Assembly: GCF_045037415.1 (NCBI RefSeq)
Contig: NZ_CP173438.1
Origin: Escherichia coli
GTDB taxonomy: Bacteria > Pseudomonadota > Gammaproteobacteria > Enterobacterales > Enterobacteriaceae
Length of the DNA: 64,000 nucleotides
Strand: one strand, 5' to 3'
Shown: positions 26,877-26,913 of the stretch, in pieces
Numbering within the stretch: the stretch's first letter is position 1
How the letters are laid out: the number at the start of each line of letters is the position of its first letter
Translations under genes and position numbers: made by a program
The notes under the pieces: generated by a model
The model's database searches: none
The model's input: the letters and a program-made list of their open reading frames with translations, nothing else
What the model was told of the DNA's origin: nothing

Positions 26877-26913
26877 AATTAATGCGCATCGGCTTAAACC
26901 GATGCGCATTAAA
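26877..26913. other. Perfect palindrome aattaatgcgcatcgg cttaaa ccgatgcgcattaaatt abutting the MFS stop codon
   Basis: Direct reading; intra-operon stem-loop between the two MFS genes, no clear U-tract. Confidence 0.5.

Follow-up and report, generated by a model that had tools for sequence, protein, structure and literature searches.

Between two MFS transporter genes of an accessory gene cluster of Escherichia coli lies a long palindrome, and the question that this locus raises is what such a structure does in the middle of an operon: whether it works as RNA or as DNA, or is merely a relic. An earlier note on this DNA had regarded it as a perfect palindrome with 16-bp arms, distinct from the REP elements, and had offered three readings, namely an intra-operon mRNA stabiliser, an RNase processing site and a regulator binding site. 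We followed up these suggestions in the window, which is the whole 64-kb stretch of DNA analysed here, in complete E. coli genomes and in orthologous operons of other genera.

The inverted repeat and the operon around it

The sequence confirms an inverted repeat at the place given by the earlier note. Positions 26876-26919 read gaat TTAATGCGCATCGG CTTAAA CCGATGCGCATTAA attattt, in which TTAATGCGCATCGG (26879-26892) and CCGATGCGCATTAA (26899-26912) are perfect arms of 14 bp each, separated by the 6-nt spacer CTTAAA. The perfect arms are thus 14 bp and not 16 bp long; 16 pairs require a bulged base in the allele of the window, where the outer AA/TT pairs can form only if 26913 is bulged out and two bases are taken from the stop codon. 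Likewise, the span of the palindrome had been given as ending at 26913, but the two arm strings of the note, 16 and 17 nt in length, reach 26915. Both flanking MFS genes, MFS-477 (26914-28347) and MFS-449 (25466-26815), are on the minus strand, and the hairpin that the repeat can form in the mRNA (hairpin 1; Table 1) therefore starts after the MFS-477 stop and precedes the MFS-449 start. In the mRNA sense it consists of a 5' arm (26912-26899), a loop (26898-26893; UUUAAG) and a 3' arm (26892-26879), with 14 Watson-Crick pairs and one U.G pair (U26898.G26893) closing a UUAA tetraloop, which makes 15 pairs. It begins 1 nt (26913) past the stop codon of MFS-477, which occupies 26916-26914 on the minus strand, so that the palindrome does adjoin the upstream stop codon as described earlier, and it ends 63 nt ahead of the MFS-449 AUG.

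The folding energy, which the earlier note had proposed to calculate, is -24.8 kcal/mol for the mRNA-sense hairpin, against -10.5 +/- 2.7 kcal/mol for shuffled sequences (z = -5.4), and none of 200 shuffles was as stable. When the whole window was subjected to 100 dinucleotide shuffles, the longest perfect arm found with a loop of 3-10 nt was 13 bp, compared with 14 bp in hairpin 1. The plus-strand fold of the same segment is -24.4 kcal/mol. In the minimum-energy fold, a 5-bp outer helix (UUGAA/UUCAA) is added across an internal loop, bringing the total to about 20 pairs. The palindrome is a real, non-random structure, with its arm length and strand corrected as above. The absence of a U-tract, also pointed out earlier, is true of the mRNA strand, on which a terminator scan made no call at hairpin 1; the only call was on the antisense (plus) strand, where the stem is followed by ATTATTTCTT and was scored as terminator-like.

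Table 1. Features of the spacers around MFS-477 and MFS-449, in window coordinates
Feature	Position	Strand	Basis
Start codon of the downstream 449-aa MFS gene (MFS-449; metabolite/H+ symporter family; gene 25466-26815)	26813..26815	-	gene calls
Hairpin 3, stem sequestering the Shine-Dalgarno sequence GGAGAGG (26828-26822) of MFS-449	26820..26842	-	predicted fold, alignment
Hairpin 2, small stem-loop CCAC-GUUUA-GUGG	26856..26868	-	spacer folding
Hairpin 1	26879..26912	-	fold, perfect-arm scan, covariation in 14 orthologues
Stop codon UAA of the upstream 477-aa MFS gene (MFS-477)	26914..26916	-	26913 alone separates UAA from the perfect stem
Sister hairpin, UGGCGCUG-N8-CAGCGCCA, in the Zn-ADH/MFS-477 spacer, without U-tract	28376..28399	-	conserved

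Flanked by typA and yihX, the cluster represents an accessory alternative to the yih (sulfoquinovose) region of K-12. It comprises six genes on the same strand, encoding a yihU-like reductase, a DeoC/LacD-type aldolase, a Zn-dependent alcohol dehydrogenase (Zn-ADH), MFS-477, MFS-449 and an aldose 1-epimerase, and, divergent from these, genes for a sugar kinase and a DeoR-family, YihW-like regulator; in the window, the operon region covers 24589-31451 (minus strand) together with the divergent kinase and DeoR genes. More than 20 species of several orders share the six-gene run in synteny (Enterobacterales, Vibrio and Sutterella, and in rearranged form alpha- and beta-proteobacteria). Since this same-strand operon is kept in 20 or more species, the site of the palindrome is intercistronic. 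A sigma-70-like promoter scan of 26500-27300 returned nothing, and an internal promoter in the spacer between MFS-477 and MFS-449 was rejected on this ground. We also rejected the idea that the palindrome marks the junction of a tandem duplication, because the two transporters are only distantly related, with 28% identity across an alignment of 134 residues, and fall into separate subfamilies of the MFS.

A variant of the yih region called the short yih cassette (yihTUVW), present in Nissle 1917 and many pathogenic strains, has been described as lacking transporters and early pathway genes (PMC12608037). The last four genes of the six-gene run (Zn-ADH, the two MFS genes and the epimerase) are absent from that description (PMC12608037), and the two transporter genes are mentioned neither in the text nor in the supplement of this Nissle 1917 RNA-seq paper. 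The run looks like a full pathway for some substrate, not a truncation. Searching the literature for term-seq data on UPEC or Nissle yielded nothing usable.

Occurrence and alleles in E. coli

Of 5426 complete E. coli genomes, 1328 matched queries of 60 nt and 34 nt that cover the palindrome, each at one locus, and the other 4098 gave no match. The search uniformly reported two places per genome, which reflects the two strands of a palindrome; the search for further copies that the earlier note had recommended thus leads to one locus per genome only. The palindrome had no match in the PLSDB plasmid collection, and a phage search gave only partial, chance-level matches; together with the single locus, these results led us to reject an origin as a dispersed repeat or mobile element. 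Four of the 2656 places, in two records, are labelled as plasmid in the E. coli genome set despite the lack of a PLSDB match, and these two records may be mislabelled or chimeric replicons.

We considered several known classes of element. The palindrome had been said not to match the REP consensus, and consensus searches accordingly detected REPs only at 5626-5823 and 39760-39876, where they form clusters (BIMEs) in alternating orientation. Membership in the REP/BIME class was rejected, the palindrome being missed both by the REP consensus and by its CTTATCCGGCCTAC tail. It resembles these elements in being an imperfect palindrome in a transcribed extragenic spacer and in containing the short string GATGCG, but REPs occur in hundreds of copies, whereas hairpin 1 occurs once per genome, and the stem architecture differs. 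Among known RNA families, the only Rfam match was to RF02351 (psRNA14), which scored 30.1 bits for the minus and 24.3 bits for the plus strand, against a gathering threshold of 60. The two share a long hairpin with an apex resembling CA.CGG-UAAA-CCG.UG; however, because both strands match, the hit is a generic long-hairpin match and does not indicate membership. No mention of psRNA14 was found in the literature searched. A dif/Xer-like site, considered on account of the 6-bp spacer and the string TGCGCAT, was rejected by inspection, since TGCGCAT is itself palindromic, lies at the wrong distance from the spacer and is not kept in the orthologues.

The carriers fall mostly into two alleles. Approximately 865 genomes have the 60-nt sequence of the window unchanged, and in approximately 440 genomes the 34-nt core matches perfectly only on the opposite strand; the loops of these two major alleles, UUUAAG (window) and CUUAAA, are exact reverse complements of each other. 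Another 21 genomes, for example PS10-3 with its symmetric CUUAAG loop, are one base away from both major forms. Comparison of these sequences suggests that the two major alleles may have arisen either by a flip of the hairpin loop or by two transitions; given the intermediate CUUAAG allele, both routes take two steps and are equally parsimonious. The alleles of 13P484A and C10 carry A instead of T at the bulge position and thereby form 16 perfect pairs. In strain AVS0747 (NZ_CP124467.1), the gene of an IS4-like ISVsa5 transposase is located inside the MFS-MFS region. The annotation of that strain lists three MFS features in this region, and it appears that one of the transporter genes is split.

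Conservation of the stem in orthologous operons

To this point the palindrome has been treated as a property of E. coli. Related loci, 28 in total, were gathered via the MFS-477 protein and hence independently of the hairpin. A hairpin of differing sequence is located 1-7 nt past the orthologous stop codon in Escherichia sp. MOD1, in four Citrobacter species and C. sedlakii, in Mixta tenebrionis and in Trabulsiella odontotermitis. The stem of Escherichia sp. is UUCAUGCGCAUCGG/CCGAUGCGCAUGAA, with an A-U to C-G change, that of C. amalonaticus is CAAGCGCGUCGA/UCGGCGCGCUUG, and that of Trabulsiella is GGCGCGUUGG/UCAACGCGCU; the orthologous stems measure 8-12 bp and include G.U pairs, compared with 15-16 bp in E. 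coli. In an alignment of 14 sequences, 89% of the cells of the corresponding helix (helix 1) hold a standard pair, against 38-56% in a control in which the 3' partner was slid by 1-3 columns, and four pairs are altered on both sides. RNAalifold recovered helix 1 when no structure was given. None of 500 shuffles reached the observed covariation score or the observed percentage of paired cells, although the 14 sequences are related to one another, so that the shuffle statistics overstate the significance and the slid control is more telling. The arms vary in sequence among genera, with only a GCGC core being invariant in this alignment, and the linker next to hairpin 1 (alignment columns 46-80) has diverged much more than the paired stem. 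The outer helix is not kept among the orthologues. In all 14 sequences, no more than four T residues are found in the 8 nt after the stem, and several of the tails are A-rich. In the earlier note, a lack of conservation in related loci was part of what would have refuted its readings; the helix is kept across genera with compensatory changes.

The conservation has its bounds. Only an interrupted stem of 5+3 bp, with a folding energy of -8 to -9 kcal/mol, stands in for hairpin 1 in Erwinia, Enterobacter, Phytobacter and three metagenomic contigs; the metagenome scan was anchored on the flanks, not on the hairpin, and the three loci that it returned all belong to the Enterobacter/Erwinia type. 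Where two MFS genes adjoin in more distant relatives and the spacer exceeds 40 nt (Edaphovirga, Leminorella, Budvicia, Citrobacter Awk4/NCU1 and Succinivibrionaceae), unrelated stable hairpins are present at the same place, and no hairpin was found in loci with spacers of 15-19 nt. The spacer hairpin of Vibrio rhodolitus is followed by CUUUUUCC, and the Vibrio hairpin is the only one among the distant loci with a clear U-run. In the alpha- and beta-proteobacterial relatives, a different gene directly follows MFS-477 without any spacer.

The strand on which the structure is kept can be read from the mismatches. Eleven of the sequences have a strong hairpin, and in their stem cores all pairs that are not Watson-Crick are G.U when read on the mRNA strand: there are 14 such cells, at five pair positions, and no A.C cells, a contrast that rests on approximately five independent positions. 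A.C is confined to the pair closing the loop and to the degenerate stems of the Erwinia type. Each of the seven orthologues from Citrobacter, Mixta and Trabulsiella folds more stably in the sense than in the antisense direction, by 1.7-11 kcal/mol, and in the Escherichia stem the two folds are about equal. An asymmetry of this kind, with G.U pairs only, is expected if the stem is selected in the mRNA and is not expected from a DNA operator or from DNA-level correction alone. The sense-strand G.U asymmetry and the cross-genus structure with compensatory changes, seen in these comparisons, therefore point to hairpin 1 as an RNA element rather than a DNA operator.

Hairpin 1 is not the only structure predicted in these spacers. 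Hairpin 3 is nearly invariant across genera and contains one covarying pair (G-C/U-A, with G.U intermediates); the last 30 nt ahead of the MFS-449 start codon are nearly invariant as well, and the start codon is also partly paired in the minimum-energy fold. In the part of the spacer that holds hairpin 2, Erwinia, Enterobacter and Phytobacter, and likewise the three metagenomic contigs, have a strong stem of 8-9 bp (CUGUGGGUG..CACCCACAG). In the sister hairpin ahead of MFS-477, 96% of the cells are paired and five of nine pairs are altered on both sides; together with hairpin 1, it brackets the MFS-477 cistron between two conserved stem-loops. A nearly invariant A-rich leader, CCCUACAACAAUGAAAAAGGA, is located 3' of the sister hairpin.

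Possible roles of hairpin 1

The reading that we favour, which we hold to have roughly an even chance of being correct, is that hairpin 1 serves as an intercistronic protective 3' structure without a U-tract and sets a boundary of mRNA decay, as in malE-malF and in the elements of Dar and Sorek. In their 2018 study, stable hairpins devoid of a U-tract were found at the 3' ends of stabilised operon segments without any sign of termination; this class is conserved in enterobacteria, and sometimes several such elements occur in one operon, for example in menBCE (PMC5927463). In the decay model presented there, which cites malE-malF as the paradigm, the segment of lower ribosome density is cleaved and degraded (PMC5927463). 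Applied to the present operon, RNase E would cut in the poorly translated MFS-449 part of the polycistronic mRNA, the 3'-to-5' exonucleases PNPase and RNase II would stall at the stem of hairpin 1, and the upstream segment ending in MFS-477 would outlive the MFS-449/epimerase segment, with unequal amounts of the two transporters as the outcome. The predicted sequestration of the MFS-449 Shine-Dalgarno sequence fits a model in which the less-translated segment decays.

Like the members of this class, hairpin 1 is a stable stem-loop, located within an operon at the 3' boundary of an upstream cistron; it has no U-tract, its structure is kept in related enterobacteria, and its operon, similar to menBCE, has more than one such hairpin. 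It differs in that the malE-malF element is a REP, whereas hairpin 1 is single-copy, and in that most elements of the 2018 set are located inside the downstream coding sequence, whereas hairpin 1 is intergenic. It is by analogy with these elements that we infer the nuclease barrier and the side that it would protect. A 5' cap for the downstream segment, similar to that of papBA, in which RNase E cuts upstream and the stem protects the downstream message, is equally compatible with the anatomy of hairpin 1, which is likewise intercistronic and preceded by an A/U-rich stretch, GAAGAAAUAAU. The direction of protection in papBA is, however, the opposite one, and in our case the A/U-rich stretch is coding sequence, in which the predicted RNase E-like motif is not kept in Citrobacter. 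Several observations count against a protective role: the Escherichia stem folds equally well on both strands, the stem is weak in Erwinia, Enterobacter and Phytobacter, and it is missing where the spacers are 15-19 nt long. In addition, template-switch mutation can turn a nearly perfect DNA palindrome into a perfect one in the absence of selection.

A rival reading is that of a selectively neutral relic. The stem might descend, for example, from an old MFS-477 terminator that predated the insertion of the second transporter gene, and its palindromic character might be due to correction of the DNA by template switching, or to flipping of the loop, and not to function. In favour of this reading, both strands of the Escherichia stem come close to perfect pairing, the loops of the major E. 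coli alleles are exact reverse complements, as a hairpin flip would give, and MFS-477 of the alpha- and beta-proteobacterial relatives is followed by another gene without a spacer. We nevertheless consider this explanation unlikely, given that the stem stays paired from genus to genus whereas the linker next to it has diverged far more, that the G.U-only asymmetry of the sense strand would not be expected from correction at the DNA level, and that distant two-MFS loci have hairpins of unrelated sequence at this position. We regard as rather unlikely a weak or conditional terminator, or a pause hairpin, that lowers the transcription of MFS-449 and the epimerase gene relative to the upstream genes. 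Hairpin 1 does resemble an intrinsic terminator in its GC-cored stem directly past a stop codon, and the analogous hairpin of V. rhodolitus runs into CUUUUUCC, but a U-tract is missing from the transcribed strand in the window and in the 14 orthologues, with tails that are often A-rich, and the hairpin lies in the middle of an operon. As judged from the sequences, it does not appear to mark the end of a transcription unit: two more genes follow on the same strand in every orthologous locus, and the spacer contains no promoter-like site. The published hairpin class, too, is without sign of termination (PMC5927463). Termination in the other direction, by which the plus-strand stem would shield MFS-477 from antisense RNA polymerase, would agree with the terminator-like call and the stability of the plus-strand fold; we find it very improbable, because the T-rich ATTATTTCTT results from the final Glu/Lys codons and the UAA of MFS-477, to which it is complementary, no plus-strand gene is located upstream for approximately 5 kb, and the antisense stems of other genera contain C.A mismatches and are weaker than the sense stems by 2-11 kcal/mol.

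Cleavage of the mRNA between the two transporter cistrons by RNase III would suit the E. coli allele, with its 15-16 uninterrupted pairs and approximately 20 pairs when the outer helix is included. RNase III substrates typically comprise about two helical turns (approximately 20 bp) of double-stranded RNA, a length that exceeds both the 15-16 bp of E. coli and the 8-12 bp, with G.U pairs, of the orthologues, in which the outer helix is not conserved; this makes RNase III processing improbable. Least credible of all is a DNA operator, that is, a palindromic site for a dimeric regulator such as the DeoR-family, YihW-like protein of the cluster. The 14-6-14 perfect inverted repeat has the expected form and a regulator gene is at hand, but the arm sequence differs between genera outside the GCGC core, no other half-site beyond chance is present in the 64-kb window and none in the promoter regions of the cluster, the mismatches are strand-asymmetric, and the palindrome is located 5 kb inside the operon with no promoter-like site near it. 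Among the three options raised by the earlier note, an intra-operon stabiliser or processing boundary is thus favoured by the cross-genus structure, the compensatory changes and the sense-only G.U pairs, and the regulator binding site is disfavoured.

A more far-reaching proposal, which we put forward as a quite improbable speculation, is that the whole 98-nt spacer (26816-26913), with hairpins 1 and 2 and the stem that sequesters the Shine-Dalgarno sequence, works as a single cis-regulatory RNA through which a ligand, a protein or an sRNA would switch translation of the second transporter, in concert with a sister leader (hairpin plus CCCUACAACAAUGAAAAAGGA) before the first transporter; separately, the palindrome might flip its loop, through recombination or template switching between the arms, and so give rise to the two mirror-image E. 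coli alleles.

If the protective reading of hairpin 1 is correct, it would add one more case to the punctuation of operons by protective hairpins, in a sugar-catabolic operon that is uncharacterised yet widely conserved, and it would explain how two unrelated transporters can be expressed differently from one transcript. The carriers account for roughly one in four of the complete E. coli genomes (1328/5426) and include the Nissle 1917 type with the short yih cassette. No general principle would be changed; the practical use would be in operon annotation and in the design of expression constructs, and hairpin 1 would serve as a clean natural example of sense-strand-specific covariation.

The window contains other hairpins as well. 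Directly past the epimerase stop and before yihX, at 24538-24578 (minus strand), a perfect stem of 13 bp encloses a loop of 15 nt (AUUGCGAAAAAGC...GCUUUUUCGCAAU); this stem is followed by CAGCAUCAC and not by a U-tract. Further long perfect hairpins, with arms of 12-16 bp between A-runs and T-runs, are located at 42099-42134, 33208-33237, 21517-21545 and 52529-52556, and these four look like bidirectional intrinsic terminators.
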